DNA of 64,000 nt from a virus (IMGVR_UViG_3300012983_000030); one strand, 5' to 3'. Shown: positions 8,082 through 48,975, numbered from the stretch's first letter. Notes: generated by a model from the letters alone, not told the origin. Numbers and translations are program-made.

Positions 8082-8097
8082 ATAAATACTAAAATCA

Positions 8098-15473: not shown

Positions 15474-15561
15474 GAGTATATAATTCCAAATAAATTTTCA
15501 ATTTATTATTTAGAACTTTACAAAATATAGCTAAATCAATTTTAAGGACTGATAATATTAA

Positions 15562-30598: not shown

Positions 30599-31493
30599 GT
30601 ATAAAATCAGTTATAATTAGTTTTAAAGCTTCAAATTCGGTTTGATTATTTGGCATACCAAATCTAGTAAAAGTATGATTATCAACAACGAATTTATGAC
30701 AAGGTATATTACTAATAACATCTCCATAAAGAGTTATAAAGTTATTAGTTACATAATCTATAGAAGAAGTCAGTTGTATTAATTCTTCTTTATATCTAGG
30801 TTTATCTATATCAAAATCAGTGTTCATTAACCAAGAAAACGCTAAACTATTTATATATTGTTCTCTTTGTAAAGACATTTTATGATGTAAAGATTTTGGA
30901 TAAATAGCAAAACCCAAACGTAAACCACATCCAATTAATTTATCGAAAGAACCAACTATGATATTTTTTGGATTTTTTAATAAAATCTCAATGCTTTGTT
31001 TCATACAATCTATATTTTGGTAAGTTATATCACATATATTATATTTAGCGGTACTTTCATCTAAATCTTTAATTAAACAGTCATATTCAAAACAAGTTGT
31101 TATACCGCAATTTGAATATAAGACATCTGTTTTTGTATTATAAAAGTCTATTGGAGTTTTGAAACTATTATCTGTTTTATCATAGGTAAATTGTTTATAG
31201 ATAGGCTTGATATCCAAAGCTTCACAATATACTTCTAACATCCTCCATGTTGGACCAGCCCAGCATAATGTTTTTGGTTTTAATGCTAATAACACATTCT
31301 TCATTGTATTTTCACAACCATTGCCTAAAAAGAAAGTATCAGGTTGCAAATTAAAGAGTTCACCAAATTTTTTATAAGCATAATACATATCTGGATATAA
31401 TCGAACATTAGTTGTAAGATATGTATCTTCTCCTGGTTCATTTTGTGTAGATAAACCATAGTTTCTTTGTTTATAAGCTTCTCTTTTTATCAT
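30576..31493 (-). CDS. PLP-dependent enzyme, class I/II aminotransferase (HisC/CobD-like)
   Basis: GNGCE, D..Y, SFDK..G.GLRLGF with the PLP lysine. Confidence 0.75.
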   Translation of the reverse strand: MIKREAYKQRNYGLSTQNEPGEDTYLTTNVRLYPDMYYAYKKFGELFNLQPDTFFLGNGCENTMKNVLLALKPKTLCWAGPTWRMLEVYCEALDIKPIYKQFTYDKTDNSFKTPIDFYNTKTDVLYSNCGITTCFEYDCLIKDLDESTAKYNICDITYQNIDCMKQSIEILLKNPKNIIVGSFDKLIGCGLRLGFAIYPKSLHHKMSLQREQYINSLAFSWLMNTDFDIDKPRYKEELIQLTSSIDYVTNNFITLYGDVISNIPCHKFVVDNHTFTRFGMPNNQTEFEALKLIITDFIHDRLYNK

Positions 31494-32298
31494 TTTCCCA
31501 CCATTTTACAAAATTATCACCAATCATCATACCGTTTATATCACATATTTCACAACATTTAAAGCATTGTCTACCTTTAGCAGAAAGCATACCTTTTCTT
31601 TTCTCTTCTAATATATTTACAAAATAATCGTAGATTGAAGTATTGAAAATATTATATTCAGAAACGCTATGATTATTCCAGTCTGCTTCACATTGTAGAT
31701 AATTACCTGTTGTATCTATAAATATTTTATAAAAAGGATAATTACATCTAGTATTTAATTTTACTTTTTTTGTATTTAAATATCCCGCTCTATTGTAAAT
31801 ATTCATTTGTGGATTTTGCATATCATGATTTCTAAACCAAGCTTTGGTATTTTTGAATTTTTCTTTATATTCATTAATTTTATTCCATTCGTGTACAGAA
31901 ATTTTAATTTGAATGGATGGTCCATAATTTTCTATTTCTTCCCAATCTTCTTTTTTTAATAAAGTACCATTAGATACAATAACTATTTTAAAATTACTCA
32001 ATTCTTTTATAATTTGTTTAAAGTTAGGATTTAATGAAGGTTCACCGAATCCAGCTGTACAAATATATCCTTTATAATTAATATTCATTAAGTATTCTTT
32101 TATTTTTAAAATATTATCTAAAGGCATAAATGTTGGATTATTTGTTTTCCAACCTAAAGATTGAGGACAAAATGGACATCTGAAATTACAAATATTTGAT
32201 AAATTTAATTCAATACTACGTAAACAATCAATAGTAGTTTTGACTTCTACATTCTCTACATCATTTTTCCAAGTATTCATTAAAATAGGATTTTCCAT
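31471..32298 (-). CDS. radical SAM protein with Twitch-like domain
   Basis: CNFRCPFC, GFGEP, NRAG, C.YPF..I.ID..G.Y..C..DW...CEIC. Confidence 0.92.
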   Translation of the reverse strand: MENPILMNTWKNDVENVEVKTTIDCLRSIELNLSNICNFRCPFCPQSLGWKTNNPTFMPLDNILKIKEYLMNINYKGYICTAGFGEPSLNPNFKQIIKELSNFKIVIVSNGTLLKKEDWEEIENYGPSIQIKISVHEWNKINEYKEKFKNTKAWFRNHDMQNPQMNIYNRAGYLNTKKVKLNTRCNYPFYKIFIDTTGNYLQCEADWNNHSVSEYNIFNTSIYDYFVNILEEKRKGMLSAKGRQCFKCCEICDINGMMIGDNFVKWWENDKKRSL

Positions 32299-33054
32299 CT
32301 ATATAACCTTATTTTTATAGTCTATCTTATCATTTGATATAACAATACAAGCTGGAATAGAAGGAAGATTTAAGTATAATGCTGCAAAAACTCGACAATT
32401 ACATGCTATAGGATATAACATATTATTATCGGTGAGTAAAAAACAAAGAGGATACTTAAAACCTTCTTCAGAAAATTTTTGTATCCAATATTCAACCTCT
32501 CCTATTTCTTTCCTTGTAGATATCCATTTATTTTTATTTGTTATATAATTTATTTGATCGAAGCTACTAATGATTCTATCAAAGTTTTTTAAATTTATAA
32601 ATTGTATAAAATTGTCTTTGATTTGAACAAATTTTTCTTCTTTAAATAAACTATAATTATTTTTTAGATTCTCAATATTAAGAACTAAATCGGTAGGAGT
32701 TGGTAAAACAGCATCTTTAAACTTATTTATACTTTTATAATATATACCAAAATTAATATTTATGTCAGTATTAATACTACTATATAAAGTTTTATCTAAA
32801 TGAATAGTATTGTTATCTATAACATAATAATTAAAACCTGGATTTAATGAGCATATATCAGTTACTTCATCATTTTCTGAATGCCACTCGATTTTATTTT
32901 TAAATAAATTGTCAGTTAAATTAATACATGTATCGTATCTATACACTAGTCGTGTTAAAAAATTCCCAAAATCTTTTCTATCATATTTTTTGATATCTAA
33001 TTTTGGGAATAATTCGTTTTTTTCTATGTAATTAGCTATTTCTGTATAATGCAT
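32299..33054 (-). CDS. protein with C-terminal ParB/Srx-like motif
   Basis: GFKYPL...NCRVFAALYLNLPSIPACI. Confidence 0.5.
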   Translation of the reverse strand: MHYTEIANYIEKNELFPKLDIKKYDRKDFGNFLTRLVYRYDTCINLTDNLFKNKIEWHSENDEVTDICSLNPGFNYYVIDNNTIHLDKTLYSSINTDININFGIYYKSINKFKDAVLPTPTDLVLNIENLKNNYSLFKEEKFVQIKDNFIQFINLKNFDRIISSFDQINYITNKNKWISTRKEIGEVEYWIQKFSEEGFKYPLCFLLTDNNMLYPIACNCRVFAALYLNLPSIPACIVISNDKIDYKNKVI

Positions 33055-34070
33055 TATGGAATCATAAAATATGGTTTTAAAAATTCATTTAATTTTTCTT
33101 TATTTACTTCTGGTTTAATGTAATATGAAAAATCATAACTTGCAAAAGGTTCACTAATTATACATGCTGGAATAGATGGTAATCCTAAATATTTGGCAAT
33201 AAGTAGTCTCTTATTTGAAAATAAAGGTAATAATGAACCATCTTTTAATAATTTGAATTGTATTACTTTCTTTAGACCATTTTTTGCAACATCTTTTGCT
33301 AAAACATTTAATTTTGTTTGATTTGCACAGCTGTGACCATAATAAATACTTTCTTCAGTATTATAAATTAAAAATTTATTGTCAACAATATGATTTGTAT
33401 AAAATTCTTTAGGTAAGTTTATATACAAATAATTATAATCAAAATATTTATCTTCTAATGCTTTAAATATACCAAATTTAGTTTCTTTTAATTTAGAAAA
33501 TGTACAAACTTCTGGAATATATTCAAAATGTAATGTATTCTGTACTGTTTTTCCAAAATTTTTAAAGATTTCATAATCTTTTATTCGTTTTGCATAATTA
33601 TAAACAGTAATTTTTACATTAATTGTAGTTTCATCATTTAAATAGTGATAAATAGTCTGTGGAATAACCAATGTATCAGTAATCGCATAGTATATCATTC
33701 CATCATAAAAATAGTCTTTTAGCTTATTGAAATTCTGTTCTGTTATTTCATCATTTTCATTAATGATTACATTTTCAAATTGATTTAAAAAATCTTTTTT
33801 TATTTCAAAATATGCACTTTCAGAAACTGATTGACAATCCTGTTGATTGTTAATGCTCAATGGACATGTATCTAATTCCAATTCTGGACTATATTCAGAA
33901 GTACCTAATTTGCTAACAACAAAATTACGATAATCTTGTTCACTTGAATATGTTATTGGAGAGATATCTTTAGTTTCTGCATATATATCATCACCTTCTA
34001 CATATGCAATATCGTCATTATATTTAAGATCTTCATCTTTTAATATAGATACATCTAACATTTTACTCAT
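33054..34070 (-). CDS. protein with C-terminal ParB/Srx-like motif (paralog of 32299-33054)
   Basis: NGLKKVI...NKRLLIAKYLGLPSIPACI; LPSIPACI is identical in both. Confidence 0.5.
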   Translation of the reverse strand: MSKMLDVSILKDEDLKYNDDIAYVEGDDIYAETKDISPITYSSEQDYRNFVVSKLGTSEYSPELELDTCPLSINNQQDCQSVSESAYFEIKKDFLNQFENVIINENDEITEQNFNKLKDYFYDGMIYYAITDTLVIPQTIYHYLNDETTINVKITVYNYAKRIKDYEIFKNFGKTVQNTLHFEYIPEVCTFSKLKETKFGIFKALEDKYFDYNYLYINLPKEFYTNHIVDNKFLIYNTEESIYYGHSCANQTKLNVLAKDVAKNGLKKVIQFKLLKDGSLLPLFSNKRLLIAKYLGLPSIPACIISEPFASYDFSYYIKPEVNKEKLNEFLKPYFMIP

Positions 34071-34788
34071 AACTTAAATTATCCTTAATAAATTGTTCTA
34101 AACCATCCACAAATTGAGTCCATTCTTCTGGTTGATTCATACCATATAATAAAGTATTAAAAGGTGTATAAATACCTATTGTCTCAAATAATTCATTATT
34201 AGTTTCTGTAAAAACATCATCATAGAAAATAGCTTCTGTTTGTACTTCATCATTAAATAATTCAATAAAAAGAGCTTCTTTAATTAAACCACAAATGTTG
34301 TTATTTATAACTATGCCTTTTTCATGTTTTACATCTTTTAAATCTAATGTAGTATCTTCAAAATCTAATCTAGAAATAGGATATAGAGGCAAAGAATATA
34401 TAAATGTAAGTAATTTCATTAAAAACGATTGATTATTTTTAATGAAGATTTCAATTTCGTTATCATTTAAAATAGATTTCGTTTCAAAATATTGATGAGT
34501 GTATATACTCAAAACTTTTATTAAAGTATTGTTGATTTCTTTAATATTATAAATAATATCACCTTCTAAATAAAACTTAATAAAAGCTTCTTTAAAAGAA
34601 TATTCACATTTTGAAAAATCTAAATCTACATCAAAGTTTGTATTTCTTAAGTAGATATATGAAATTCTAACATTATCTTCTGAATTTATTCCAGGGTAGT
34701 TAATATTACTCATATCAACTATTGCCCCTTTTTCTTTTATTTCATTCATAATGTTAAAATCATAAGGTAAATTAGTAAGTATTTTCAA
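34063..34788 (-). CDS. hypothetical accessory protein of the radical SAM cluster
   Basis: TTG start with AAGGAG RBS; directly follows the candidate substrate gene. Confidence 0.7.
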   Translation of the reverse strand: MKILTNLPYDFNIMNEIKEKGAIVDMSNINYPGINSEDNVRISYIYLRNTNFDVDLDFSKCEYSFKEAFIKFYLEGDIIYNIKEINNTLIKVLSIYTHQYFETKSILNDNEIEIFIKNNQSFLMKLLTFIYSLPLYPISRLDFEDTTLDLKDVKHEKGIVINNNICGLIKEALFIELFNDEVQTEAIFYDDVFTETNNELFETIGIYTPFNTLLYGMNQPEEWTQFVDGLEQFIKDNLSYE

Positions 34789-34800
34789 AATTTTCTCCTT

Positions 34801-35490
34801 TTATCGTCTAGATCTCTGATCATGACAATTACTATGACAATTCAAATGACAAGTATACATATTATATGTTAATTGATTTCCAGTATAACAAGTATTATAC
34901 CAAGAATTATAACAGTTAGTTACAGTATTATTAAAAGAAGCAGCAGTTATTTTAGCACCTGCTGTAATTCCACTGTTTGCAGGATTAAGTGTTATAGATG
35001 TTGTACCTTCTCTAGTCCAAAATTTACTTGGATTACCATTTGCACTATCTGCACCACCGGTTACTGCTGGAAATGTATTATTAAATACTGCTCTTCCAGA
35101 TATTTGACTTTTTAAAACACGTGTACCATATTCATTATGATACCAATTTGCATTAAAATATCTTATCTTATTTAAAGCTTGTGTTACAGAAAGCATGCTT
35201 GACCAAAGAGTACTCGCTTTTATAATTGTATCTGAAATAGTTAAACTAGGAGCAGTTTTAGCATTAAACTGAGCTGTTTCAATAGCTTGTTGTGGATTAG
35301 TAAAATAAGTAGTTTGTGTTGTAGTAGTATAATCTACATTAGCAGTTGCTGCAAATTGAGGTAAATTTCCAGTATGGTATGTAGCAAAATTATAAATAGG
35401 TGTAGATACTCTAGCATTAAAATCGTTTATGCAGCCAATTACGCTTCCAGATGTAGCTTTTCTAATTACTTGTCCTGCTGTTACAGTCAT
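34801..35490 (-). CDS. candidate radical-SAM substrate protein with C-terminal (CHxN)-repeat tail
   Basis: T/N/A/S-rich body ending in TCHLNCHSNCHDQRSRR. Confidence 0.65.
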   Translation of the reverse strand: MTVTAGQVIRKATSGSVIGCINDFNARVSTPIYNFATYHTGNLPQFAATANVDYTTTTQTTYFTNPQQAIETAQFNAKTAPSLTISDTIIKASTLWSSMLSVTQALNKIRYFNANWYHNEYGTRVLKSQISGRAVFNNTFPAVTGGADSANGNPSKFWTREGTTSITLNPANSGITAGAKITAASFNNTVTNCYNSWYNTCYTGNQLTYNMYTCHLNCHSNCHDQRSRR

Positions 35491-36390
35491 TTATTTCTCC
35501 ATACTTTCTATTATTTTATATAAACCTGAACAGTATGGTTTTTTAAAATCTACTAAATGCTCAGCTTTACATTTTTTATAATACTTACATAAATTACATT
35601 GTTCAAAATATAATTTTTCTTCTATTTTACAGTGTTTTTCCCATTCGGTTAAAGAGTTAAATTCTATATTTTGTTCAATATCACCATTATATATAATGGA
35701 ACTATAATTACCGCTTGGATTTATAAATAGAAAACTATTCATTGTTGGAACATATTTGTCATCATTTAATATAATTTTATTAGTTATTTCAAAGCTATAA
35801 TTACCTTCACTATGATATTTTAATATATCATATAAAAATTTTACATATTCTTTTGTTGTAATATTATATTTGAATGAATTGTTGATTGAAGGATGATATT
35901 GAATGAAAAAAACGTCATGACCTAATTTTTCATAAAAATCTAATAAATCTTTTGTGTTTTTATTTAATATAGATGGTAAAACAACTATTGCTAATTCATG
36001 TTTAGTTTTTAGTTGTCGTAAATTATATAAAGTATTTTTATAATTATCTCTTTCTTCATTTAAAGAAATAGATACAGGTATATTATATTGATTACAAAAA
36101 TCAATGAATTTTATATTTGAAAGATTTGTAACAAAAGAAATATTATACTTTTCTAATAGTTTTATTAATCGTAAAAGATATTCATTTGGCAATAAAGATA
36201 TTTCTCCACCATATATTGAAATATGATGAATATTATATTGGTCTTCTAATTCAATCAAGCGCTCTTTTAGTATATTTAAATCTAAGACAGTTTTATCTTT
36301 TTTTAAATCACCAAGATAACAATATCTACAGTTAAAATTACAATAAAAAGATGGAATTATTGAGAGTTGTAAGGGTTTTTTTGTATCCAT
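35491..36390 (-). CDS. radical SAM protein
   Basis: CNFNCRYC, YGGEISLL, C-terminal CxxC...C..EH...CSG. Confidence 0.93.
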   Translation of the reverse strand: MDTKKPLQLSIIPSFYCNFNCRYCYLGDLKKDKTVLDLNILKERLIELEDQYNIHHISIYGGEISLLPNEYLLRLIKLLEKYNISFVTNLSNIKFIDFCNQYNIPVSISLNEERDNYKNTLYNLRQLKTKHELAIVVLPSILNKNTKDLLDFYEKLGHDVFFIQYHPSINNSFKYNITTKEYVKFLYDILKYHSEGNYSFEITNKIILNDDKYVPTMNSFLFINPSGNYSSIIYNGDIEQNIEFNSLTEWEKHCKIEEKLYFEQCNLCKYYKKCKAEHLVDFKKPYCSGLYKIIESMEK

Positions 36391-37520
36391 TTTTTATATC
36401 TTTCTTTTATTTCAGGATTTTCTTCAATATATTTATGAGCACGTTTATATGGACAATCAGTTGGAGTAAAACCTTCAAATACAACAGAAACCCAACATGG
36501 CATTTGACAAGTTTTATAATATTCACAATTTAAACAACCTCTTTTCATCATACCAAGAGATAATTTTATATCGCTCACATTTTCTTCAGTAATTATATCT
36601 GCGTATTTACCATAAAACATTTCTGCCGGTAAAATAGATGCTCTTTTTACACAATCTACTGTCGCTTGACCATTTGAATATTGTACACAAGTTTTACAAT
36701 CACAATAGTGTTGAGGTATATAGATTCCTTCATTTATAGTTGTGTTTACTAAATTACTAATAACATTTATATAATATAAATCATTATCTAAACCCCATTT
36801 AAAAAATGTAAATAAATCATCATCATTTGGTAATAATTCTTTCCAATTTGGATTAGCGGTATAAAAATTTATATCATATCTTTCATTAAAATCTAGTCTA
36901 TCTAAATCAGATTTTCCAGATACATATTCTTCTATTGTCTTTTTAGTTAAAGTAATTGATAAACAATTAAAGCATTTCATTTCGTGAAAATATTTTACGT
37001 TAGATATCATTAATTCTTTTTGCTTTTCAGAAGAAAATCTACCACTAGGATCATAGCTGAAACCTATTGTACCATTTGAATATTTTAATATATCTAGTAC
37101 TCTATCACGTTTTGTAAATACTCCGTTTGTTAACCAAGAGTATTTCAGTGTTATTTTTGGAAATTCTGTTTTAAACAAGTTATTAAAAGTATCTACAAAA
37201 TTTTTATATTCTTGAAACAATGAATCTGGCAAACCATCAAAAAATAGCTCACCTCCCCATAACCGAACATTAACTTCTTGTATATTAGGATATTGTTTAA
37301 AATCTTTTCGTACAGCTTTCATTACTTCAAAAGGAATATTTCTAATATAATTTAAATCAATTTTATTATTTCTATGTCCTTCGAAACAAAATTTACATTT
37401 TAAGTTACAAGCTTCAAATAAAGAGCAAGCTATTTCATAAGATTTTGGATCTTTATAAAAAGGTATTTTAGGTAATTCAGATGGCATATCAATATTACTT
37501 ATATCTAATAACTTACTCAT
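36357..37520 (-). CDS. radical SAM/SPASM protein
   Basis: CNLKCKFC, WGGE, C-terminal CLNCEYYKTCQMPC. Confidence 0.93.
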   Translation of the reverse strand: MSKLLDISNIDMPSELPKIPFYKDPKSYEIACSLFEACNLKCKFCFEGHRNNKIDLNYIRNIPFEVMKAVRKDFKQYPNIQEVNVRLWGGELFFDGLPDSLFQEYKNFVDTFNNLFKTEFPKITLKYSWLTNGVFTKRDRVLDILKYSNGTIGFSYDPSGRFSSEKQKELMISNVKYFHEMKCFNCLSITLTKKTIEEYVSGKSDLDRLDFNERYDINFYTANPNWKELLPNDDDLFTFFKWGLDNDLYYINVISNLVNTTINEGIYIPQHYCDCKTCVQYSNGQATVDCVKRASILPAEMFYGKYADIITEENVSDIKLSLGMMKRGCLNCEYYKTCQMPCWVSVVFEGFTPTDCPYKRAHKYIEENPEIKERYKKWIQKNPYNSQ

Positions 37521-38310
37521 TTATTACTCTTTCATATAATTTTTTAGGAAAGCTACACACATGTTGTAATTTACAAGGTTTACATTTTCCAGCTAATTTA
37601 CAAGTTAAACATTCTTTTAATACGAACTCTTTTTCGTTTTGAGGACAACCTCTTTTTAGTTCTCCATTTGGATATAAAGTAAAAATATTATCGCAATCAC
37701 AATTCCAATTTAGTACTCTATCCTTGATTATATTTTTAAATTTAAATTTCCATTCTTTGTCTATTTTACATAACCATTCATCGGCTTGTATGTGTAAATC
37801 ATTTTTTATATTATAATCAATCAGATGTTCGAATAAAATTCCTTCTATTGCATTATAATTATTCCATTCATATAAATATTTTAGAAAACTTGATATTTCT
37901 AAATCAATTAAATCTTTTGTCATAGTTATTAAAACAATACATTTCATATCATATTTTTCTAATAACTTTAAATTATTTAGCCAAAGTGTATATTGTTTAT
38001 CAGTGAATCGTTGCAAATTCCAAGAAGTTGCTATGGAAATCTCTTTTTGTTTTAATATTTTAATAATATTTTCGTCTAGCAATAACAAATTGGTTGAAAT
38101 AGATGTAATTTTATTACTATTAATCAATTTTAAATATCTGTCTTTGTGTAAAAGAGGTTCACCTCCGAATAATACATTTTCTGAAAAATTAGTTTCAGAA
38201 AAAGCTTTGTAAAAAGAATTTTCATTGAAATCATCTTTTCGTAAATGTAATTCACAATGCGGGCAGTTTAGATTACATGTAAAATTAGGAATGATGTATA
38301 ATTTGCTCAT
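37513..38310 (-). CDS. radical SAM/SPASM protein
   Basis: CNLNCPHC, FGGEP, TSWN..RFT, Cys-rich C-terminus. Confidence 0.93.
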   Translation of the reverse strand: MSKLYIIPNFTCNLNCPHCELHLRKDDFNENSFYKAFSETNFSENVLFGGEPLLHKDRYLKLINSNKITSISTNLLLLDENIIKILKQKEISIATSWNLQRFTDKQYTLWLNNLKLLEKYDMKCIVLITMTKDLIDLEISSFLKYLYEWNNYNAIEGILFEHLIDYNIKNDLHIQADEWLCKIDKEWKFKFKNIIKDRVLNWNCDCDNIFTLYPNGELKRGCPQNEKEFVLKECLTCKLAGKCKPCKLQHVCSFPKKLYERVINE

Positions 38311-39217
38311 TTTTTATCTTTTCATATAATTTTTTAGGAAAAGTACATTTTTCTTGAATATTACATCCACCCTTACAAATAGGATAATATTCACATTGGT
38401 AACAAAAAGGTTTTTGAGGCTCATATTCATAATAAGGACAACCATCTTTTAAATAACCGTTTGGCATAATAGTAGTTGTAGTTTTACAGTAATTTTTCCA
38501 AATACGTTTACCTTCAATAATTTGTTTAATTTCATTAAAAATTAAATTTAATGGCTTTTTAAATTTCCAAATATCATATAATTCACATAACCATTTGTCA
38601 ACAGCTTCAAAATCATTAGTTAAATCACCAATCATTTGTTTTAAATCAATATTTCTACATTTTTCCCAAGAACAAACCAAGTTATAAAAATCTAATGGAT
38701 TCATCTGAATTAAATCTTTAGTTAATGTAATCATAACAGAATATGAAATATTGTTATCATTTAAAATTTTTAATTGTTTTAACCAATGCTGATATTGTTC
38801 ATTAGTAAAACGTTTTGGATTCCAAGATGTATTTACATCTTCTACTTTTTTCATTAACTTTATTTTATAGGGAGTTAATTTAGAAAGTAAATTTGTAGAT
38901 AAAATAATTCTAGTATTATCAAAAAATTCTTCAAATATTTTTAACTCTTCATCTTTTAATAGTAGTGGTTCACCACCAAATAAATTAAAAGTTAATGTTT
39001 CATCATTTACCATACGAATAAAACGCATAGTATTATATACTTTATCTAAATAACGTTGAGGAGTAATATCTTTTAATGTACAATGAGGACAATTAAGATT
39101 ACAAGTAAAATCAAAACAAACAAATATTTCTTTCATTTGTTGTAATCTATTAATTTCAAATGTATCTAGAGGTTTACCCATATTATAATGAGTTATACCA
39201 TTTATCATATTTTCCAT
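38285..39217 (-). CDS. radical SAM/SPASM protein (paralog of 37513-38310)
   Basis: CNLNCPHC, FGGEP, TSWNPKRFT, CYQCEYYPICKGGC, CTFPKKLYE. Confidence 0.93.
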   Translation of the reverse strand: MENMINGITHYNMGKPLDTFEINRLQQMKEIFVCFDFTCNLNCPHCTLKDITPQRYLDKVYNTMRFIRMVNDETLTFNLFGGEPLLLKDEELKIFEEFFDNTRIILSTNLLSKLTPYKIKLMKKVEDVNTSWNPKRFTNEQYQHWLKQLKILNDNNISYSVMITLTKDLIQMNPLDFYNLVCSWEKCRNIDLKQMIGDLTNDFEAVDKWLCELYDIWKFKKPLNLIFNEIKQIIEGKRIWKNYCKTTTTIMPNGYLKDGCPYYEYEPQKPFCYQCEYYPICKGGCNIQEKCTFPKKLYEKIKNEQIIHHS

Positions 39218-40161
39218 TGTGCCTCCAGAATCTTATTTTTTCTTTTTAACATTTCTTCACAATGGTTTAAAGTGAGTTTATTTGTATTTCTATTCATTTT
39301 ACAAGCGTTACAAAACTTAAATAATTCACAATATAAACATTTATCATTTATAACTTCATCAATTGGAATATTATTTTCTATAGGAGGTACTCTATCTGTA
39401 TCCAGTGGGATACGAAAACCTTCATTTGCACAATCTTCACAGTTACTATATTGAATAGCGTTATTATTATCTAACCAAAAAACTCTAATAGTAGATTCAC
39501 ATAAAAGATTAGTATTAAATCCACATCCACCTTCATAAAATTGTATTTGAGAATCTAAATATTCTTCTAATCCCAATTCTTTTATTTTTAACCAAATATC
39601 AACCATTTTATAACGAGGGTAGAAATCTTTTGATTTTCCCATAGCAGATAATGGATTTAATTTACATTTAGTATTTAATTTTTTAGCCAAATATACATGA
39701 TCTAAAGCTTTTTCTTCATTTTCATTTGTTATTACTGAAATAAATGAGGGTACGTAACCTACTTTTTCTTTAAATAATGTCATTACTTCTATAAATTTAG
39801 CTTCTGTATAAGGAGTATTTTTATCCCATAATCTACCAGTACCATATTGAAAAGATGTACAAATTCCAATACGGTTATTTTTAAATAGATTTGTCCATTT
39901 AGAAGGATTTAGATAAAAGTCTTTTAAATTGGTAGTAAATGAAATATTCCAATCACCTAAAGTAAGTAATTCTTCATAATAAGAAGGAGACATCATTAAA
40001 GGATCTCCTCCAGTAATGATTAAATTATCAGGTTTTATAGTAAAAAGGACTTGTTTTAATTCAGAAGGAACTTTAGTTATAGTCTTTATTTTTAATAAAC
40101 CAGCACTGCAAAAATTGCAGTTAAAATTACATCTAGATGTCGGTTTAATTATCAATTCCAT
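39205..40161 (-). CDS. radical SAM/SPASM protein
   Basis: LIIKPTSRCNFNCNFC, GGDP, CLYCELFKFCNAC. Confidence 0.93.
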   Translation of the reverse strand: MELIIKPTSRCNFNCNFCSAGLLKIKTITKVPSELKQVLFTIKPDNLIITGGDPLMMSPSYYEELLTLGDWNISFTTNLKDFYLNPSKWTNLFKNNRIGICTSFQYGTGRLWDKNTPYTEAKFIEVMTLFKEKVGYVPSFISVITNENEEKALDHVYLAKKLNTKCKLNPLSAMGKSKDFYPRYKMVDIWLKIKELGLEEYLDSQIQFYEGGCGFNTNLLCESTIRVFWLDNNNAIQYSNCEDCANEGFRIPLDTDRVPPIENNIPIDEVINDKCLYCELFKFCNACKMNRNTNKLTLNHCEEMLKRKNKILEAQWKI

Positions 40162-40630: not shown

Positions 40631-41155
40631 ATGAAAATAGAGGGAAATATACAAACTGCTACGAAGTTTTATGTTCGTACTTCAACTGGCGATATAAAAT
40701 GGGTACCAAGTTTAGAAACAGCAAAGCGTTATATTAATAATCCTGCTAATACTAATTGGTATTTACAAACTATATATGCCACAAATGAAGATATCGTAAA
40801 AGGCTATGATGGTAAAAATTATTTAAGATCTGAATTACCAGATACTCCAGTAGAGTATAAAAAGATAAATGATTTTGAAATTTTTAAAAGTCAAGCTTTT
40901 TCTTTTTTACGAGCACGCTTAAAAGACTTTGCAGAAAAGTATAGTTATGAATCAATTGAAGAGATTATATCTTGGAAAGATTCTTCTATTTTAGATTTAA
41001 ATTTACTTGCAGTTAAAGCATTTAAATATAGAGATTTGTGTTATTGTTATTATTTAGAAGCATTAGAAAAATATGAAATAGAATTTGATAATAGTTTACT
41101 TGATAACAATACTAAATTTTATGAAAAATATATAAATAATTTTCCAAAATTTTAA
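40631..41155 (+). CDS. hypothetical protein, resembles tail-fibre-assembly-associated proteins
   Basis: GYDGKNYL and YESI....SW.DS...A..A..YRD..Y pattern. Confidence 0.45.
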   Translation: MKIEGNIQTATKFYVRTSTGDIKWVPSLETAKRYINNPANTNWYLQTIYATNEDIVKGYDGKNYLRSELPDTPVEYKKINDFEIFKSQAFSFLRARLKDFAEKYSYESIEEIISWKDSSILDLNLLAVKAFKYRDLCYCYYLEALEKYEIEFDNSLLDNNTKFYEKYINNFPKF

Positions 41156-41169
41156 AAGGTGGTAATTTA

Positions 41170-41871
41170 ATGAAAAATGAATTGATAAAATACTTGAATG
41201 ACAATGCTAATGTAAAATATATTCAAAATGAAAATGATATAGAGATTTCTGTATTATCTACAATTTCAGAAGAATGCTTAATTTCAACATTAGGTAATAT
41301 ATTTGCAATAGAAAACAAAGCAGTTGAAAATAAAGAAGAATTATATATTAAATTATCACTTAGGGAGTTAAATACTAAACAATTAATAGCTGCATTTAAA
41401 TTTGTATTAAATCAAGATACAATAAATGATAGTTTAACAATATTAAATATTCTCAATTTAATTAAGAGCAATACTTTAGAAGAATCATTTTTTGAAGATA
41501 AAAATGTATACTCTAAGTCTTTGGTTGAATATTTAGACGTTAAATTAGAAATAAAAGATGAATTAAAAGAATTTGTTAAAAAGTTTAGCTTTTATTTCTA
41601 TTCAATGATTAAATCATGTGGAAAACCAATTGCCAATGGTAAAGATACTGTTGTAAAATTGCCAGATGTATACTATAATATTTTTGTTTCTTTAGATTTC
41701 ATGACACTTTCTAGAATTGCAGCGACTTGTGATGATGTAAATTTAGCAGATTGTGGATATATAAGTTGTGCAAGAGAATTAATTTATAATTCATTGAAAG
41801 ATTATTTTATAGGTAATACAATGTTAAATATGTTTTTAGAGGGTTTAGATAATGCCGATGATTGCGAATAA
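41170..41871 (+). CDS. hypothetical accessory protein
   Basis: 233 aa; overlaps the start of the poly-Ser protein. Confidence 0.7.
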   Translation: MKNELIKYLNDNANVKYIQNENDIEISVLSTISEECLISTLGNIFAIENKAVENKEELYIKLSLRELNTKQLIAAFKFVLNQDTINDSLTILNILNLIKSNTLEESFFEDKNVYSKSLVEYLDVKLEIKDELKEFVKKFSFYFYSMIKSCGKPIANGKDTVVKLPDVYYNIFVSLDFMTLSRIAATCDDVNLADCGYISCARELIYNSLKDYFIGNTMLNMFLEGLDNADDCE

Positions 41872-42505
41872 TGTAATAACATATTCTGATGTTATTAACC
41901 ATGTTACAAATAAAATAGTAAAGGCTTGTGCTAATGCTGATAAATTTACATCAGATGTGCATTATTCTTTAAAGAATCAAACATCATTTACTTTGATTAA
42001 AGATACTGTTTCACCAAAAGGACAAAATGCTTATGTTAATGTAAAAGTAAATGATGCTCTTGGTGTTACTGTAAGTTCATCTACTATTAAAAATCAATTA
42101 AATGACTTTTTAACATCTCGTGGTGTAAAAACTCAATCTAATAAACCAATTTCAATGAAAGGTATGATGAATTTATATAATAATATAGCAACTTTTATTA
42201 CTCGAAGATTAGTTGTTGTAAATTCATCTTTTAATATTGGTAAACAATTAATTTTTTATAATGCGACTAGTAATTTATCATACAATACAGTAAATTTTGG
42301 TAATTTTAATGAATTAAATTTTAATGGTACTGAAATGCAAGCTTGTATTAATAATTTGATGAATTCATTAAATCAAAAAGTAAAAGTAAAATATATAAAC
42401 ACAGTAATTACAAACACTTGTTCATCAAGTTCAAGCTCTTCTTCAAGTTCTTGTTCTTCAAGTTCGTCATCGAGTTCAATGTTTATTGCATATATGGATA
42501 TCTAA
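41852..42505 (+). CDS. candidate radical-SAM substrate protein with C-S10-C-S8 tail
   Basis: C-terminus TCSSSSSSSSSSCSSSSSSSSMFIAYMDI, encoded by mixed TCN/AGY codons. Confidence 0.65.
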   Translation: MPMIANNVITYSDVINHVTNKIVKACANADKFTSDVHYSLKNQTSFTLIKDTVSPKGQNAYVNVKVNDALGVTVSSSTIKNQLNDFLTSRGVKTQSNKPISMKGMMNLYNNIATFITRRLVVVNSSFNIGKQLIFYNATSNLSYNTVNFGNFNELNFNGTEMQACINNLMNSLNQKVKVKYINTVITNTCSSSSSSSSSSCSSSSSSSSMFIAYMDI

Positions 42506-42506
42506 A

Positions 42507-43079
42507 ATGCCTTTGTATAATGTAAAATATTCTGATATAACAACACCAGTTTTGAATTATATGTTAAACAATTGTCAAAATCTAGATAGTAGATTTGATT
42601 CAATTCCATTATGTTTTAAAGCAGGATATTCAATTACAGTAAATCAAAGTCATACTTGGAGTAAAAAGAGTAAAGCCTTTAAAGGTTGTCAATATATTCC
42701 TATATATAGATATACTATTCAAGGAAAAGTTATCAATAAATATACAGCAGCTCAAGTTCGTCAAGATTTTACTAGCAAATTTAATACAAGTGATGCAATA
42801 GTACCGAATCATCAATTTTATGAGCTTTTAATAAATTTAATTAATTATGCTTCTAGTAGAATGGCAATATTTTCTAGTCAATTTAGTCCAAACGTTAACT
42901 ATTTAGCATATGTAATGGAAAATACAGTTACCCATCCAATGGATGATCCACATCCTCCTTTAGTGACAGCAACTACAACGGAAGATTTATTAACATATCT
43001 TACTCAAATGTTAAATTCTAATGTATATAATGTTGTATGTCAATATAAATATGAATATATATCAAGCAGAGAGTTTTGA
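42507..43079 (+). CDS. paralog of 41852-42505 lacking the Ser tail
   Basis: Start re-called to ATG 42507; shares YSD, C.N.D and (S)SxF motifs and spacing. Confidence 0.6.
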   Translation: MPLYNVKYSDITTPVLNYMLNNCQNLDSRFDSIPLCFKAGYSITVNQSHTWSKKSKAFKGCQYIPIYRYTIQGKVINKYTAAQVRQDFTSKFNTSDAIVPNHQFYELLINLINYASSRMAIFSSQFSPNVNYLAYVMENTVTHPMDDPHPPLVTATTTEDLLTYLTQMLNSNVYNVVCQYKYEYISSREF

Positions 43080-43102
43080 TATTTTTCTAAAAGGAGTAAT
43101 TA

Positions 43103-43966
43103 ATGTCATGCAAACCCATTTATGAATTTTTATTATGGGATAACTGTAATAATAATTGTAAATTTTGTTTTCAAAGAGAATTACCTCGTTTGTTTGGTCT
43201 TAAACAACGAGAACAAATTTTAAATAAAACTATTGATTTTATAAATTCTGATGATTTCATTAAAGGAAGTCATGTTTTAGTAGTAGGTGGTGAAATTTTT
43301 GACAAACCTACTGATTTTAATATACTCTATACATTTTTTGAAGATATAATAAATAAGATGTTAAACGATGATATCGAGTATTTATATTTAAATACTAATT
43401 TATTATACAAAGATTTATCCGGTTTATATCGAGTTTTAACATTATTAAATGAAAACTCATTATTACATAGGTTAAAATTTACAACATCATATGATTTTGA
43501 AGGTAGATTTAAAACAAAAGATGATGAAGCACTTATGTTAAGTAATCTTGAAAAGTTAAAATGGTTATTTCCAAATATTAATATTGTAGTAAATATGATT
43601 TTAACAAATAAAGCCTGTGAGTATATATTAAACGATAAATTTGATTTTATGAATTTTAGACAAAAATATGATGTAGAAATTAATTTATTACCATATATCA
43701 TTTACGATTATAATTTATCAGCTCCCAAAGAAAAAGTATTTAAAACTTTACAAAAAATACAAGATTTAGATAAAAATTATATTGAAAACTATATTAAAAA
43801 TTTTGATTTGAATCAAGATAAATTATTATTTGTTTATAAAAATGATAATTATGAATTTTGTAGTTGTGAACATGGAAGTTGTGGACATTCTATTAACTTT
43901 AAAAGATATTCTACTGAAAATACATGTTTTGTATGTGATTTAAAGGAGTTTTTTAATGGAAAATGA
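43103..43966 (+). CDS. radical SAM protein
   Basis: WDNCNNNCKFC, GGEIF, TSYD..GRF, CGH...CFVCD. Confidence 0.92.
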   Translation: MSCKPIYEFLLWDNCNNNCKFCFQRELPRLFGLKQREQILNKTIDFINSDDFIKGSHVLVVGGEIFDKPTDFNILYTFFEDIINKMLNDDIEYLYLNTNLLYKDLSGLYRVLTLLNENSLLHRLKFTTSYDFEGRFKTKDDEALMLSNLEKLKWLFPNINIVVNMILTNKACEYILNDKFDFMNFRQKYDVEINLLPYIIYDYNLSAPKEKVFKTLQKIQDLDKNYIENYIKNFDLNQDKLLFVYKNDNYEFCSCEHGSCGHSINFKRYSTENTCFVCDLKEFFNGK

Positions 43967-44882
43967 TGATTTTTTACAATATGAAATCTGGAAAGACTGT
44001 AAAAACGGATGTAAATTTTGTACAAACTTTAAACAAAAAGATATTGATAAAATTTCATCATTAAAATATATTTTAACAGACTTAGATTTAAGAAAAAATG
44101 ATAAAATAGCAGACATTGGCTTTATCGGTGGTGAATTTTTTGATGATCAGCTTGATAATCAAGAAGTTAGAATGTTATTTTATCAACTTTTTGATTGGTG
44201 TGAACAAAAACTTAAAAATAATACTTTAAAAAGAGTTTTTATAACAAGTTGTTTAATTTTTGATATACAAAACAGCTTAATTCCTTTTTTAGATTACTTA
44301 CGTGATAAAAATATATTAGATAAAGTGATGCTTTGTACATCATATGACATAAAATATAGATTTTATACCGAAAAACGTAAAAAATTATGGGAAGATAACA
44401 TGCTATTTTTACATGAAGCTTATCCAGAATTAAAAATACATACTCAAACAATTATGACTCAATTTTTTATTGATGCTGTACTAAATAATGAGTTTGATAT
44501 TAAAGCTTTTTGTGAAAAATATCATACTTTTATAGATTATAACGAACCTCAATCTGGATTTTTCTATGATAAACAAGGAATGTATAAAGCAATTCCTGAC
44601 TTTTTTCCAACTAAAGAGAGCTTTAGTAAATTTTTATTAAAAACTGTTATACAAGATAGAGTAATTAATCCTTCTACATTTTTAATACGAGATTTACATT
44701 GTAGTGAATTAGATTATATTTATGATGGGGAACGTAAAAAACTATTTAATAGAAGAAATAAAGAAAATTATTACTTAACCCCAGGACAAAAAAATTCTAA
44801 TGAATTAGGATTTATAGATTCTGATATTAAAATGGCAGACTTAGCACAAGAAATTCTTGAAAGTTTTGGAGAATTTGAATGA
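43956..44882 (+). CDS. radical SAM protein
   Basis: QYEIWKDCKNGCKFC, GGEFF, TSYD..YRF; lacks the C-terminal Cys motif. Confidence 0.92.
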   Translation: MENDDFLQYEIWKDCKNGCKFCTNFKQKDIDKISSLKYILTDLDLRKNDKIADIGFIGGEFFDDQLDNQEVRMLFYQLFDWCEQKLKNNTLKRVFITSCLIFDIQNSLIPFLDYLRDKNILDKVMLCTSYDIKYRFYTEKRKKLWEDNMLFLHEAYPELKIHTQTIMTQFFIDAVLNNEFDIKAFCEKYHTFIDYNEPQSGFFYDKQGMYKAIPDFFPTKESFSKFLLKTVIQDRVINPSTFLIRDLHCSELDYIYDGERKKLFNRRNKENYYLTPGQKNSNELGFIDSDIKMADLAQEILESFGEFE

Positions 44883-45829
44883 TTTTAGGAAACAAATTTA
44901 AAAATCATAGCATGGTACAGTATGGAGTATGGCCAAATTGCTGTAATAATTGTGCTTTTTGTTTAAGAGAAGAAAGAAGACCTTATTCAAAAGAAGAGCA
45001 ATTACTCTGGTTAGATAGAATTAAGAAAAATATCACACTAATAGATTGGGAAAATCAATTTTCTTTTGGTATTTCTTTACTTGGAGGCGAATTATACTTT
45101 ATTACAGATAAAGATTTACAAGAGTCTTTTCTTGAATTGATAGATGTAATAATTGAAAAGGTTTTAAAAGTATCTAAAAATCCAAGTTGCAAGTATTCTA
45201 CTGTTACAAATGGTCTTTATAATCCAGAATTTTTATATAAAGTTATTGATAAAATAGTAAATAGTGTTGGTATACAATATGTAGATGTTAATTTTTCTTT
45301 TGATTTAAAATATCGTTTTAAAAATGAAGAAGATAAACAGTTAGTGCTTAAAAATATTAATGACTTTCATAATAGATATGACTATTGTGTTGGTGTACAA
45401 ATGATTCTTACTCAATACTTAATAGATTTATGGAAAGATAATAAATTTACAGTATCTGAGTTTGAAAACAAATATATTCCAGGAAATGTATTAACTTTTT
45501 TATATCCACACCCTATTCATACCGGCTTGAATTTAACTGATTTTAATTTTAATAGACCAGATTTTTTAAGATTTTTGAATTATTTAAAAGAAAGTAATTA
45601 TAGTACGTATTTATCCTTTTTACATTCTACAAAAAATTCATGTAAGTTTAAATATACAGGTCTAAGAGATAGAAAAGATGATAGCTATTTATATCAACCC
45701 GCTCTATCTGATGGTAAAGAAATAATTAATCCTAATTGTGGACACAGTACTTTATATAAATGTTATACAGATTGTGATAAATGTTTATTATGTGATTTAG
45801 AAAATCTAGATGAAGATGCTTATGTATAA
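44879..45829 (+). CDS. radical SAM protein
   Basis: WPNCCNNCAFC, GGEL, SFD..YRF, CGH...CLLCD. Confidence 0.92.
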   Translation: MILGNKFKNHSMVQYGVWPNCCNNCAFCLREERRPYSKEEQLLWLDRIKKNITLIDWENQFSFGISLLGGELYFITDKDLQESFLELIDVIIEKVLKVSKNPSCKYSTVTNGLYNPEFLYKVIDKIVNSVGIQYVDVNFSFDLKYRFKNEEDKQLVLKNINDFHNRYDYCVGVQMILTQYLIDLWKDNKFTVSEFENKYIPGNVLTFLYPHPIHTGLNLTDFNFNRPDFLRFLNYLKESNYSTYLSFLHSTKNSCKFKYTGLRDRKDDSYLYQPALSDGKEIINPNCGHSTLYKCYTDCDKCLLCDLENLDEDAYV

Positions 45830-45838
45830 GGAGTTATT

Positions 45839-46786
45839 ATGAAGAAACAATTACAATTTGAAATATGGGAAGAATGTAACTCTAAGTGTAAGTTTTGTTA
45901 TCTAGGAAAAAACAATCTTCTTACTCCAAATCATGTAAAATTAAAGTCATTACAATTAATTTTAGATAAAATATCTGATTTATCTATATATGACGAATAT
46001 GATGTTATTTCATATTTAGGTGGAGAATTTTTTCAAGGCCAATTAAATACTCCTGAAATAAAAGAATTATTTTTTAAATTAATGGAAGAAACTGCATGGT
46101 TATTGGAAAATAAATATATACGTGAAGTTTGGATATATGCAACATTAACAATAGGTAATCAAGAAGATTTATATAAAAGTTTAGAATATTTTAAACAAAA
46201 AGAGGGTTTATGGATATTAACTTCTTATGATACATTAGGAAGATTTCATACTAAAAAAATGGAAGATAATTGGAAGTATCATATGAAAAATTTACATAAA
46301 TTGTATCCAGAAATCAAATTTAATACGACTACGATTTTATCAGATGATTGTATAGACAAATATTTATCTGGTGAATTGTCATTTAAACAAATGATGGAAG
46401 AATTTCATACTGCTTTCTTTTTTAAACAGTGTGGACTAGGAGACTGTACAAAAGAAGAAATGAATGAAAGATTACCTGGTTTTTTAACTACTCGTGATAA
46501 ATTTCTAAAGTTTTTGACAAAATTTAAACAAGATGAATCAGAACATATGTGGACTAAGTTGTTTAATATTCAATATAGAGCAGATACTTTATATAGAAAT
46601 TTTAATGATGATAGACATATGCAAATAACTATTAGAAATAAAGATAAAAAAGCAGAATTAACCACAGACAATGAGATTGAAATGCAATTAAATGAATGTG
46701 GACATCCCTTATCTTATGCAACTTATTTAGATTCTAATAAATGTGCATTATGTGATAAGCAACTTATTGAAGAAACTGTAATTTAA
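45839..46786 (+). CDS. radical SAM protein
   Basis: QFEIWEECNSKCKFC, GGEFF, TSYD..GRF, CGH...CALCD. Confidence 0.92.
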   Translation: MKKQLQFEIWEECNSKCKFCYLGKNNLLTPNHVKLKSLQLILDKISDLSIYDEYDVISYLGGEFFQGQLNTPEIKELFFKLMEETAWLLENKYIREVWIYATLTIGNQEDLYKSLEYFKQKEGLWILTSYDTLGRFHTKKMEDNWKYHMKNLHKLYPEIKFNTTTILSDDCIDKYLSGELSFKQMMEEFHTAFFFKQCGLGDCTKEEMNERLPGFLTTRDKFLKFLTKFKQDESEHMWTKLFNIQYRADTLYRNFNDDRHMQITIRNKDKKAELTTDNEIEMQLNECGHPLSYATYLDSNKCALCDKQLIEETVI

Positions 46787-46796
46787 GGAAAATATT

Positions 46797-47249
46797 ATGT
46801 TTAAAGTAGTAATTGAAGATAATGTTAAATATTTAGCTTGTACAGAAGATTTGGTATTAAATGCTTTTTCAAAAAATATGTTTAATACACAAATAAAGTT
46901 CTCTACTAGAAAAGAAGAAATATTGTTTTTTAAAGATAAAGTATTTTCAGATGACATTTTTGTATCATCTGGTGTTTTTAGTAATGAAAAAGACAAAGAG
47001 TTAAAAATAACGATTATAAATATATCTGATACTCAAGTAGTTATTCCAGCTGATACTAAGTTAGTAAAAGTTGAATCTTTGACAGCTTATGATGAATCTA
47101 AAAATTATATATCTGGAAATAAAATATATGATCAAAATGGCATAGAAGTATATAATGAAAATGAAGAATTAGCAGTAGCTTCTGTAGAAATGCTTGAAAC
47201 AGAAGATCATAAACCAACTGTAATACAAATTAATTTTAAAGACAAATAA
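46797..47249 (+). CDS. hypothetical protein, possible degenerate dUTPase fold
   Basis: SGVF......ELKITIINIS....VIP..T.L resembles dUTPase motif III-IV without the catalytic Asp. Confidence 0.4.
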   Translation: MFKVVIEDNVKYLACTEDLVLNAFSKNMFNTQIKFSTRKEEILFFKDKVFSDDIFVSSGVFSNEKDKELKITIINISDTQVVIPADTKLVKVESLTAYDESKNYISGNKIYDQNGIEVYNENEELAVASVEMLETEDHKPTVIQINFKDK

Positions 47250-48140
47250 ATGAAAAAAGCAATACGAGTACATATATTACCTTTATATAGATGCGATATA
47301 AATTATTCGTATTGCTTATATCATTCTATTAAAAATGATAAAAATACTTTGGATTTAGTGACACTAGATAATAAACTTTCTGAGATAAGCACAAAATATG
47401 ATATTGTGCAAATTAACATTGCAGGAGGTGAAATATCATTACTATCTGATTTTTATTTTGAAATGCTTTATAACCTTTGTAAAATTTACTGTAAAAAAAT
47501 ACAGGTTTTTACTTCTTTCTTTAAAGTGAATAAATCTCTGATAAATAGCTGTGAAGTTATAAATGTACTTTATAATTTTTTAAATCCTAATAAAATGGTG
47601 GTTAGTAATATTCAAGCTGCTGTAGCAAGTGATAAAATTATAAACTTAAAAGCATTTGATATTTATTGCAACGATGACACTATACAAATGATTAATCATA
47701 TAAATACAATGAAAGTAAAATCATTTGAAATATTGCCATATATAAAATCAACAGAAGATTATACTTTTTGTGAAAATAAAATTAAAGACTTTTTAAAAAA
47801 TTCAAATAAAATGAAATTTGCATTTCAAAATAAATTACAATTAGACAAAATATTACAAATAGATAACTATAATGTTAAAAATATATTTATTTTACCAAAT
47901 GGTAAATATGGACTACAAACTTTTGAAAACAATAACTTTTTCTTTAAAGAATATGACGAAATAGAAGAATTTTCAAAAAATATTGAAGAATTAGAAATTT
48001 TTCGCGATAAAATTTGCAAAAATTGTACTTCTAAATTACAGTGTATGGCTAATTACTTTTTAAACCTCAGTTACGTTGGAAAATCATGTTGTGGATTTAA
48101 AGACTTAGTAGAAGATTATAAAAAAGGTAGGCAGCAATGA
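47250..48140 (+). CDS. radical SAM-like protein with degenerate cluster motif
   Basis: CDINYSYC instead of CxxxCxxC; GGEISLL; paralog of 35491-36390. Confidence 0.8.
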   Translation: MKKAIRVHILPLYRCDINYSYCLYHSIKNDKNTLDLVTLDNKLSEISTKYDIVQINIAGGEISLLSDFYFEMLYNLCKIYCKKIQVFTSFFKVNKSLINSCEVINVLYNFLNPNKMVVSNIQAAVASDKIINLKAFDIYCNDDTIQMINHINTMKVKSFEILPYIKSTEDYTFCENKIKDFLKNSNKMKFAFQNKLQLDKILQIDNYNVKNIFILPNGKYGLQTFENNNFFFKEYDEIEEFSKNIEELEIFRDKICKNCTSKLQCMANYFLNLSYVGKSCCGFKDLVEDYKKGRQQ

Positions 48141-48700
48141 ATTTTATGTATGCAATAAGTTCAAATTCAGAATTTTTGAGTAAAGATAAAAAAATTTTAG
48201 CACGGGTAGAAAAAGCAAGAGAAAAATTTTTAAAATCTAAAATAAAAATAGAAAGTAATTTTATAAAATTAGGTGAAACTAACTATTATTATAATGGTTT
48301 ACCAAATGTACCAAAAGAAAGAGATGTATTAAAAAAACCAGACGGTGTATGTTGTATACGTGTAAACTGGAAAAAGAAATCTTTTGAAGGTAAATCAACA
48401 GATGAAATATATAAAGAATTAAAACCTCAATATGGATGGAATATAGTAACTGTTGATGCAGAACATTCTCGTAATAAATTCAAAAACAAATCTGTTTCTT
48501 GGGCTGTTTTTGATACTGAAGAAAAAGCACAACAAGCATTAACATTATTTAATTCTTTATTTATGACTGCTATGGAATTGGATTGCATTGAAGAGTATAA
48601 GCGTTTTAAAGAAAATCCAGAAAAACGTCCTTTGACTTTTGACATGCTTTGCAGTAATGCGTATGAGTTATACGAACAAGTTGATAATGATGAATTATAA
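48137..48700 (+). CDS. hypothetical protein
   Basis: ATGA overlap with the previous gene. Confidence 0.7.
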   Translation: MNFMYAISSNSEFLSKDKKILARVEKAREKFLKSKIKIESNFIKLGETNYYYNGLPNVPKERDVLKKPDGVCCIRVNWKKKSFEGKSTDEIYKELKPQYGWNIVTVDAEHSRNKFKNKSVSWAVFDTEEKAQQALTLFNSLFMTAMELDCIEEYKRFKENPEKRPLTFDMLCSNAYELYEQVDNDEL

Positions 48701-48720: not shown

Positions 48721-48975
48721 ATGAGTGAAAATGAGTTAAACACACAAAATGAAATGATTACTCGTAATTTAACTATTACTGTAGAAGGAGAAGCCAAATC
48801 TGGTAAAACGACTCTTCTTAATATTATTAAAAATTGTTTAGAAAGAGATTATACTTTCAGAACTTTATTTGCAGGTGCTAATATTAAATTGGAAGAAAAA
48901 TTAGTAGAAAATTCAGATGCCCCTACTTCTAGTAATAAAGACACTGAAGTAGAGGATACTAATGAGCAAATTTAA
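48721..48975 (+). CDS. small protein with Walker A-like motif
   Basis: ITVEGEAKSGKTTLL; AAGGAG RBS. Confidence 0.6.
   Translation: MSENELNTQNEMITRNLTITVEGEAKSGKTTLLNIIKNCLERDYTFRTLFAGANIKLEEKLVENSDAPTSSNKDTEVEDTNEQI

Follow-up and report, generated by a model that had tools for sequence, protein, structure and literature searches.

The question raised by this locus is why a phage-like genome should encode a protein ending in a run of serines and cysteines next to a set of paralogous radical SAM (rSAM) enzymes, and whether that tail is what the enzymes act on. The window analysed here is the whole stretch of 64,000 nucleotides of viral DNA (IMGVR_UViG_3300012983_000030), which has 26.6% GC, in which no tRNA genes were found and which encodes phage-like products (portal, prohead protease, GroEL, SbcCD, tail-fibre-like proteins and DHFR). 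At least 12 rSAM genes are present within the window, and the rSAM genes are arranged in two divergent arms from about 40.6 kb, a minus-strand arm at 28717-40161 and a plus-strand arm at 40631-48700. The genes at 40631-48700 overlap or abut and no terminator-like site lies between them, so the plus arm fits a single operon; promoter and terminator scans were uninformative at the 27% GC of the window DNA.

The tailed protein (41852..42505, plus strand, 217 aa) has an ATG start with an AGAGGG box 5' of it and is made up of three parts: a folded body domain of residues 1-189 (41852..42418), a Ser/Cys run C-S10-C-S8 as the candidate modified core (42419..42478), and a hydrophobic C-terminal octapeptide MFIAYMDI with the stop codon (42479..42505; octapeptide codons 42479-42502, stop 42503-42505). 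Translation confirmed this C-S10-C-S8-MFIAYMDI end, which the preliminary description had read from the sequence, and the interleaving of Ser codons that it had reported was borne out as well: the 18 serines are encoded by TCA (7), TCT (4), AGT (4), TCG (2) and AGC (1), and both cysteines of the run by TGT. Ser codon choice in the run roughly matches that of 14 other window genes (TCT 37%, TCA 32%, AGT 23%), in which Ser and Cys account for 6.8% and 1.4% of residues, and against this background a 20-residue run of Ser and Cys only is far beyond chance. Tandem Repeats Finder detected only weak imperfect periodicity (scores 34-40, 72-86% matches), in agreement with the earlier statement that the run is not microsatellite slippage, and given the mixed codons and weak periodicity we rejected slippage as its sole source. 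Close relatives do differ by whole Cys-plus-Ser units (P0002 vs P0007), which indicates some repeat-mediated length change.

A first search returned 24 relatives of the tailed protein, 29-97% identical overall, and in the resulting 25-sequence alignment (mean column identity 36%) the Ser run and residues F211, I212, A213, Y214 and M215 were invariant. We then scored a body-only profile, with the tails removed, against 1.84 billion representatives (E<=1e-3) and obtained 387 clusters at the 50% identity level. The tail was present in 120 of the 169 family members inspected, the remainder being mostly fragments or tail-less paralogs. The runs of these 120 tails are 6-32 residues long (median 20) and consist of 2031 Ser, 391 Cys and 9 other residues (99.6% of 2431 are Ser or Cys), with at least one Cys in 117 of the 120, and they are followed by an end motif that reads x-F-I-A-Y-M-x-[I/L] throughout the family and has exactly eight residues in 80 of the 120. 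Composition and end motif are thus near-invariant while the bodies are 22-45% identical, and the same Ser positions are coded differently between loci, including switches between TCN and AGY, so selection acts on the protein, as the preliminary description had proposed. Mean column identity of the body is about 32% across the family, and the invariant tail set against it is the conserved core in a variable precursor that RiPP-like logic predicts. Judged by these alignments, no other part of this large and unnamed protein family is conserved as strongly as its Ser/Cys tail.

The cysteines are placed variably within the runs: all spacings from 0 to 12 were seen, a run usually begins with its first Cys, and its last Cys is most often separated from the end by 5-6 Ser. 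A defined cross-link pattern is therefore unlikely, and the constraint on the run looks compositional rather than positional. The same figures bear on the idea that the tail is not a substrate and serves the phage rSAMs themselves, for instance by carrying or donating sulfur or iron-sulfur clusters. We regard this idea as very improbable: the wealth of rSAM genes in the window, the almost constant presence of Cys in the run and a Cys/Met-metabolism PLP enzyme in one related module speak in its favour, but Ser outnumbers Cys by about 5 to 1, the Cys spacing is irregular, no cluster-binding motif or homology to an Fe-S assembly protein was found, and modules that have only the plus-arm rSAM subfamily still carry the tail.

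The run contains no Pro, Ala or Arg, the tail contains no His, and the anSME motif C/S-x-P/A-x-R does not occur in it. A sortase, exosortase or membrane-anchor signal was considered and rejected, as the run is followed by eight residues with neither a basic cluster nor a segment of transmembrane length. One family member (L015, 7539-8243) matches its database protein only when TAG is read as Gln, which points to a recoded stop codon in some phages carrying the system.

The plus arm opens with an accessory protein of 174 aa (40631..41155), which has homologs at 36-45% identity within the same module of three related loci (L018, L021 and L023) and no match in Pfam, PHROG or NCBIfam. It is followed by a protein of 233 aa (41170..41871), here called the partner, whose gene shares its last 20 nt with the start of the tailed gene. 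Downstream of the tailed gene, the preliminary description had placed four paralogous rSAMs; these are indeed present at 43103-46786, but one intervening gene, at 42513-43079, had been missed. This gene (42513..43079, plus strand, with an alternative TTG start at 42486) encodes a true tail-less paralog of the body, 188 aa long, which is matched by the body profile over positions 8-178 (hmmsearch E 1.9e-8). Then come rSAM A (43103..43966, 287 aa), with CxxxCxxC, GGE, TSYD..RF and a C-terminal CGH...CxxCD, rSAM B (43956..44882, 308 aa), which is without the C-terminal Cys motif, rSAM C (44879..45829, 316 aa), the most conserved member, and rSAM D (45839..46786, 315 aa), which is frequently duplicated in other loci, all on the plus strand.

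Further along the same strand lie an accessory protein of 150 aa (46797..47249), without family match and with one weak homolog in L007 (30% identity, 5.5e-7), a degenerate rSAM paralog of 296 aa (47250..48140), and a conserved protein of 187 aa (48137..48700), without family match and with orthologs 52-63% identical at the same position in L017 and L021; a small ORF (48721-48975) and SbcCD come next. In the degenerate rSAM the cluster motif reads C-DIN-Y-SY-C, the middle Cys of CxxxCxxC being replaced by Tyr. CxxxCxxC is intact in the L021 ortholog (14623-15531, 52% identical) and nothing is left of it in that of L017 (10767-11666), which suggests decay of this paralog in some lineages. The minus arm encodes a second tailed protein (34801-35490, minus strand), with a Cys/His/aromatic-rich C-terminus and a basic RSRR-type motif at its end, which is conserved at 47-49% identity in L012 (3997-4716) and L018 (524-1204). 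It adjoins its own partner of about 240 aa and SPASM-type rSAMs, and for this reason we take it as a separate substrate-like system.

The preliminary description had suggested a search for homologs with a Ser/Cys run and a FIAY-like end beside the rSAMs. Loci were collected from the tailed-protein side (L003, L005, L007-L013, L016-L019) and from homologs of rSAM C (L020-L023), of which L021 and L022 are near-identical to L018 from the tail side; this gave 11 distinct long loci (the window, L003, L005, L007, L012, L013, L017, L018/L021, L019, L020 and L023). Such homologs were found in all 11. The partner, the tailed gene and rSAMs B, C and D, with or without A, lie within a few kb of each other in each of the 11, and the placing of a substrate gene beside its maturases, as in rSAM-matured RiPP-like logic, therefore holds throughout and from both search directions. 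Loss or variability of the run in homologs that keep the rSAM set had been named as evidence against the proposal, and every locus with the rSAM set keeps its Ser/Cys run. In every long locus the gene directly upstream of the tailed one is an ortholog of the partner; the tail-less paralog comes after the tailed gene in 10 of the 11 and is absent in L003. The smallest version, L020, consists of six genes only (partner, tailed gene, tail-less paralog, rSAMs B, C and D), and in L023 the order is permuted (A, B, C, partner, tailed gene, paralog, D).

The neighbourhood of the module changes from locus to locus. In L003, L005, L007 and L013 it follows large genes, some with weak tail or tail-fibre matches in PHROG or Pfam, while it neighbours SbcCD in the window, L017 and L021, a DNA polymerase in L020, and GroEL and ClpP are encoded near it in L023. 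Since the gene set stays intact despite reordering and relocation, we consider its members functionally linked. No protease or exporter was found in the conserved set of the loci examined.

Several additions to the module were also observed. L018 is nearly collinear with both arms of the window, and in L018 (7483-11263) and L021 (478-4258) the pair of tailed and tail-less genes is tandemly duplicated, with a 175-aa protein and a partner gene between the two pairs. A conserved family of about 330 aa, without Pfam or PDB sequence match, occurs in most related modules (L007 13026-14015, L005 15822-16826, L012 17148-18161, L013 16536-17666, L003 11799-12803, and two copies in L021 at 7928-9998) and is absent from the window. 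A carbamoyltransferase (Carbam_trans_N/C) is added in L017 (6698-8245, minus strand) and L021 (12451-14064), and a Cys/Met-metabolism PLP enzyme in L005 (14834-15856; PF01053, 4.5e-20); tblastn detected no counterpart of either enzyme in the window.

We modelled the tailed protein with AF2 from the 25-sequence alignment and obtained a confident alpha/beta domain of about residues 6-190 (pTM 0.74; pLDDT 68-96 over residue blocks 11-190), followed by a tail that is predicted to be disordered (pLDDT <50, residues 192-212) and to end in a short strand (214-216). The body model has no convincing fold match (Foldseek against PDB and BFVD, E>0.5; VIA, Z<=5.2; ESM Atlas, TM<=0.30). The partner was modelled at pLDDT 90.6 and pTM 0.84, likewise with no convincing fold match (Foldseek against PDB, E>=0.1; VIA, best Z 6.0 over 65 residues; ESM Atlas, TM<=0.34 for the query), and a word-index search with the partner returned one near-identical protein only. 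None of the tailed protein, the tail-less paralog and the partner has a match in Pfam, PHROGs or NCBIfam. Some body paralogs are fused to a long glycine-rich C-terminal part (L017 9001-10725, P0235; also P0260 and P0265); PF21722 Gly_rich_2 matches P0235 and P0260 but not P0265, and tail PHROGs match only P0235 (phrog_863 'tail fiber assembly', phrog_454 'tail fiber protein'). As far as these matches go, the glycine-rich fusions hint at a link between the body family and virion fibres. Having tail-less and glycine-rich paralogs of its own, the body is an independent domain and not a disposable leader.

These models raise the alternative that the tail is structural and stands apart from rSAM chemistry, the serine run being a tether and the F-I-A-Y-M strand docking into a partner such as the tail-less paralog, the 233-aa protein or a virion component, with the rSAMs as neighbours for another reason. 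The predicted disorder and terminal strand, the body paralog fused to a glycine-rich domain that matches tail PHROGs, and the modules that follow large genes with weak tail or tail-fibre matches all agree with such a role. Linkers, however, normally drift, which is hard to reconcile with the 99.6% of run residues that are Ser or Cys and the Cys present in nearly every tail, and the linkage to the rSAMs survives both the permutation of gene order and the move to non-structural neighbourhoods; we therefore hold a purely structural tail to be rather improbable.

The enzymes themselves carry the radical SAM superfamily signature (CxxxCxxC and GGE). Across 25 sequences of A-D, C15, C19 and C22 of CxxxCxxC and G62-G63-E64 are invariant, as are S129, D131 and R135, and the C-terminal CGH...CxxCD (three Cys and one His) is common to A, C and D and absent from B. 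All four start directly at the cluster motif. Their matches to Pfam PF04055 (E 5e-6 to 3e-3) are below the gathering score, and rSAM A also matches phrog_1802 (2.4e-13). Orthologs of A are 38-56% identical in other loci, those of B occur in every long locus including the minimal L020, and those of C are 60-73% identical in other loci; rSAM C has 807 homologs at E<=1e-5, many on contigs of 200-290 kb, with identities of 65-100% among the 120 matches listed. Paralogs within a genome are only about 22% identical, while most orthologs are 45-75% identical between loci, so the split of A-D is old.

When A-D were compared with curated family models, none reached any cutoff. The preliminary description had pointed to anSME-type chemistry among others, but A-D proved unlike anSME and SPASM-type enzymes: they have no SPASM, anSME (TIGR03942) or epimerase model match. 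PF13186 and TIGR04085, searched as models of the SPASM/twitch domain, and TIGR03978 and TIGR03977, searched for HXS-type rSAMs, gave no match to A-D. A PqqD-like RRE was not detected either (no Pfam PqqD match at E<0.1, and the fold matches of the partner are weak, with Z 6.0 over 65 residues), and no YcaO was found in the ten ORFs scanned at 40631-48140. The nearest solved relatives of the A-D profile are viperins and viperin-like enzymes (6b4c, 7n7i, 9dgw; E about 1e-7). The similarity is not limited to the cluster-binding motif and covers two collinear segments, at profile positions 8-114 and 185-267. On the curated viperin model NF038283, A-D score 16.5-19.2 bits against a cutoff of 180 bits and so fall outside the family, and the same weak match is given by unrelated rSAMs of the minus arm.

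A viperin-like function would place the radical chemistry elsewhere than on the peptide. A-D would then act on nucleotides or another small molecule, with neither backbone nor side chains of the tail as the radical target, and an accessory role would fall to the tailed protein, its paralog and the partner, which might provide a scaffold, regulate the enzymes, or carry on Ser hydroxyls an O-linked group for A-D to tailor. The ranking of viperins as the best PDB relatives, the absence of a SPASM domain from A-D and the small-molecule-type enzymes in some modules (the PLP enzyme of L005, the carbamoyltransferase of L017 and L021) are what would be expected of it. Against it stand the distance from the viperin cutoff and the equally weak match of the minus-arm rSAMs, the minimal L020 module, which has no transferase or small-molecule enzyme, and the invariant Ser/Cys composition of the tail, which it leaves unexplained. 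We think it unlikely that A-D are nucleotide or small-molecule enzymes of this kind.

The reading that we prefer, and whose chances appear to us about evenly balanced, is that the co-encoded rSAMs post-translationally modify the Ser/Cys tail of a folded protein, which is itself probably left uncleaved. We infer, from gene content and conservation, that A-D would be the modifying enzymes and that the product would stay on the protein. The substrate would be a cytoplasmic protein with a folded body of about 190 residues and a disordered C-terminal Ser/Cys run; B, C and D would be the core enzymes and A optional. The invariant end x-F-I-A-Y-M-x-[I/L], the body, or both, together with the partner and the tail-less paralog, may present the tail to the enzymes, which would then modify the run iteratively. 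Recognition would depend on composition and not on position, given that the runs differ in length and in the placing of their cysteines. The possible follower or recognition role that the preliminary description gave to the FIAYM end would be in keeping with the invariance of that end. Since the conserved set has no protease or exporter and body paralogs have other C-termini, among them a tail-fibre-like glycine-rich domain, the product is probably a modified protein, attached to its body, and not a released peptide. Candidate chemistries are Calpha epimerisation, Cys-to-Ser thioether links, oxidation to formylglycine and radical dehydration.

Several observations count against modification of the tail: A-D have neither a SPASM/twitch match nor a recognisable RiPP-recognition domain, their nearest solved relatives, the viperins, act on nucleotides, the tail could be a flexible tether with a docking strand, the Cys positions are variable, and there is no conserved protease or exporter. 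When rSAM C was paired with the tailed protein in a complex prediction that included a 4Fe-4S cluster and SAM, the score was 0.02 and the mark 0.32, which weighs neither for nor against the reading. A bolder version of the same reading, which we find conceivable but doubtful, is that three to six viperin-related rSAMs turn the polySer/Cys tail, residue by residue, into a non-proteinogenic polymer on a carrier; the polymer might be poly-D/L-Ser, polyformylglycine, or a chain of dehydroalanine/lanthionine type that arises through viperin-like radical dehydration, and the carrier would be the folded protein, possibly virion-associated.

Known systems share parts of this arrangement. In the HXS antiphage system multiple rSAMs (HxsB/HxsC) and a small protein, HxsD, mature the folded HxsA, which has His-x-Ser repeats, and as an analogue it is the published precedent for several rSAMs and a small protein maturing a folded Ser-repeat effector (PMC13128918). 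As in the phage module, several rSAMs and a small accessory are encoded with a folded protein bearing a low-complexity Ser-containing repeat, and what HXS makes is a modified protein rather than a small natural product, as is proposed here. HXS is, however, bacterial and defensive and its HxsA is processed and exported, whereas the tailed protein belongs to a giant phage, has a homopolymer-like Ser/Cys run without His at its very C-terminus, and is encoded with three to six rSAM paralogs; A-D match neither the HxsB nor the HxsC model.

SPASM/twitch peptide maturases, namely the sactipeptide and ranthipeptide synthases AlbA, CteB/SCIFF and PapB, and anSME resemble the phage system in that rSAMs lie beside a Cys- or Ser-containing target, and thioether formation and formylglycine are their known Cys/Ser chemistries, but A-D have no model match near the cutoff, and the tail has no anSME motif and no fixed Cys. 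With the rSAM epimerases (YydG/EpeE of epipeptides, PoyD of proteusins) the phage system would share iterative action on a C-terminal core after a large N-terminal region, and epimerisation is a change 'silent' in sequence that would suit a homopolymer; A-D nevertheless have no detected sequence relationship to these enzymes, epimerase precursors are not homopolymeric, and the N-terminal part of the phage protein, unlike theirs, is a folded domain with its own paralogs. Viperins and prokaryotic viperin-like enzymes are the nearest solved sequence relatives and, like A-D, are about 300 aa long and without SPASM, although A-D remain far under the family cutoff (17-19 vs 180 bits), and viperins act alone on NTPs without a co-encoded conserved tailed protein, whereas A-D are encoded with one. 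Polyazole RiPPs (streptolysin S, telomestatin-type) have contiguous Cys/Ser/Thr cores and need a YcaO cyclodehydratase. The phage run likewise consists almost solely of heterocyclisable residues, with a recognition region before the core, but no YcaO or dehydrogenase was detected in the module, whose enzymes are rSAMs.

The system has so far appeared only on phage-like contigs. The tailed protein and rSAM D gave no tblastn match in 50,697 deposited phage genomes, and in 185,579 species genomes only two matching contigs of about 245-249 kb were found, both labelled 'Bacilli bacterium' MAGs. The phage-type rSAM module is the same in these two GTDB contigs, L018 (249 kb) and L019 (245 kb), which probably represent giant-phage genomes that were assigned to bacterial bins; their label may hint at a Bacilli-type host. 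In the literature searched, we found no description of polyserine together with radical SAM enzymes, or of rSAM modification of phage proteins or virions. rSAM maturation itself is known; the substrate family and the enzyme subfamily are new.

If the tail is modified, viruses would invest three to six radical enzymes in a single protein tail. The family concerned is widespread, with 387 clusters and, for one of the enzymes, 807 homologs; it occurs only on phage-like contigs, and the system is compact enough to fit in the six genes of L020. Peptide and protein maturation chemistry would then gain an rSAM subfamily and a kind of substrate new to it, in which a folded carrier bears a homopolymer-like Ser/Cys run, and conversion of the run into a non-proteinogenic polymer would be a protein hypermodification of a new class, the first on a viral protein to be made by rSAMs. 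A modified tail would further raise the matter of its role for the giant phage, which may lie in virion stability, adhesion or counter-defence.
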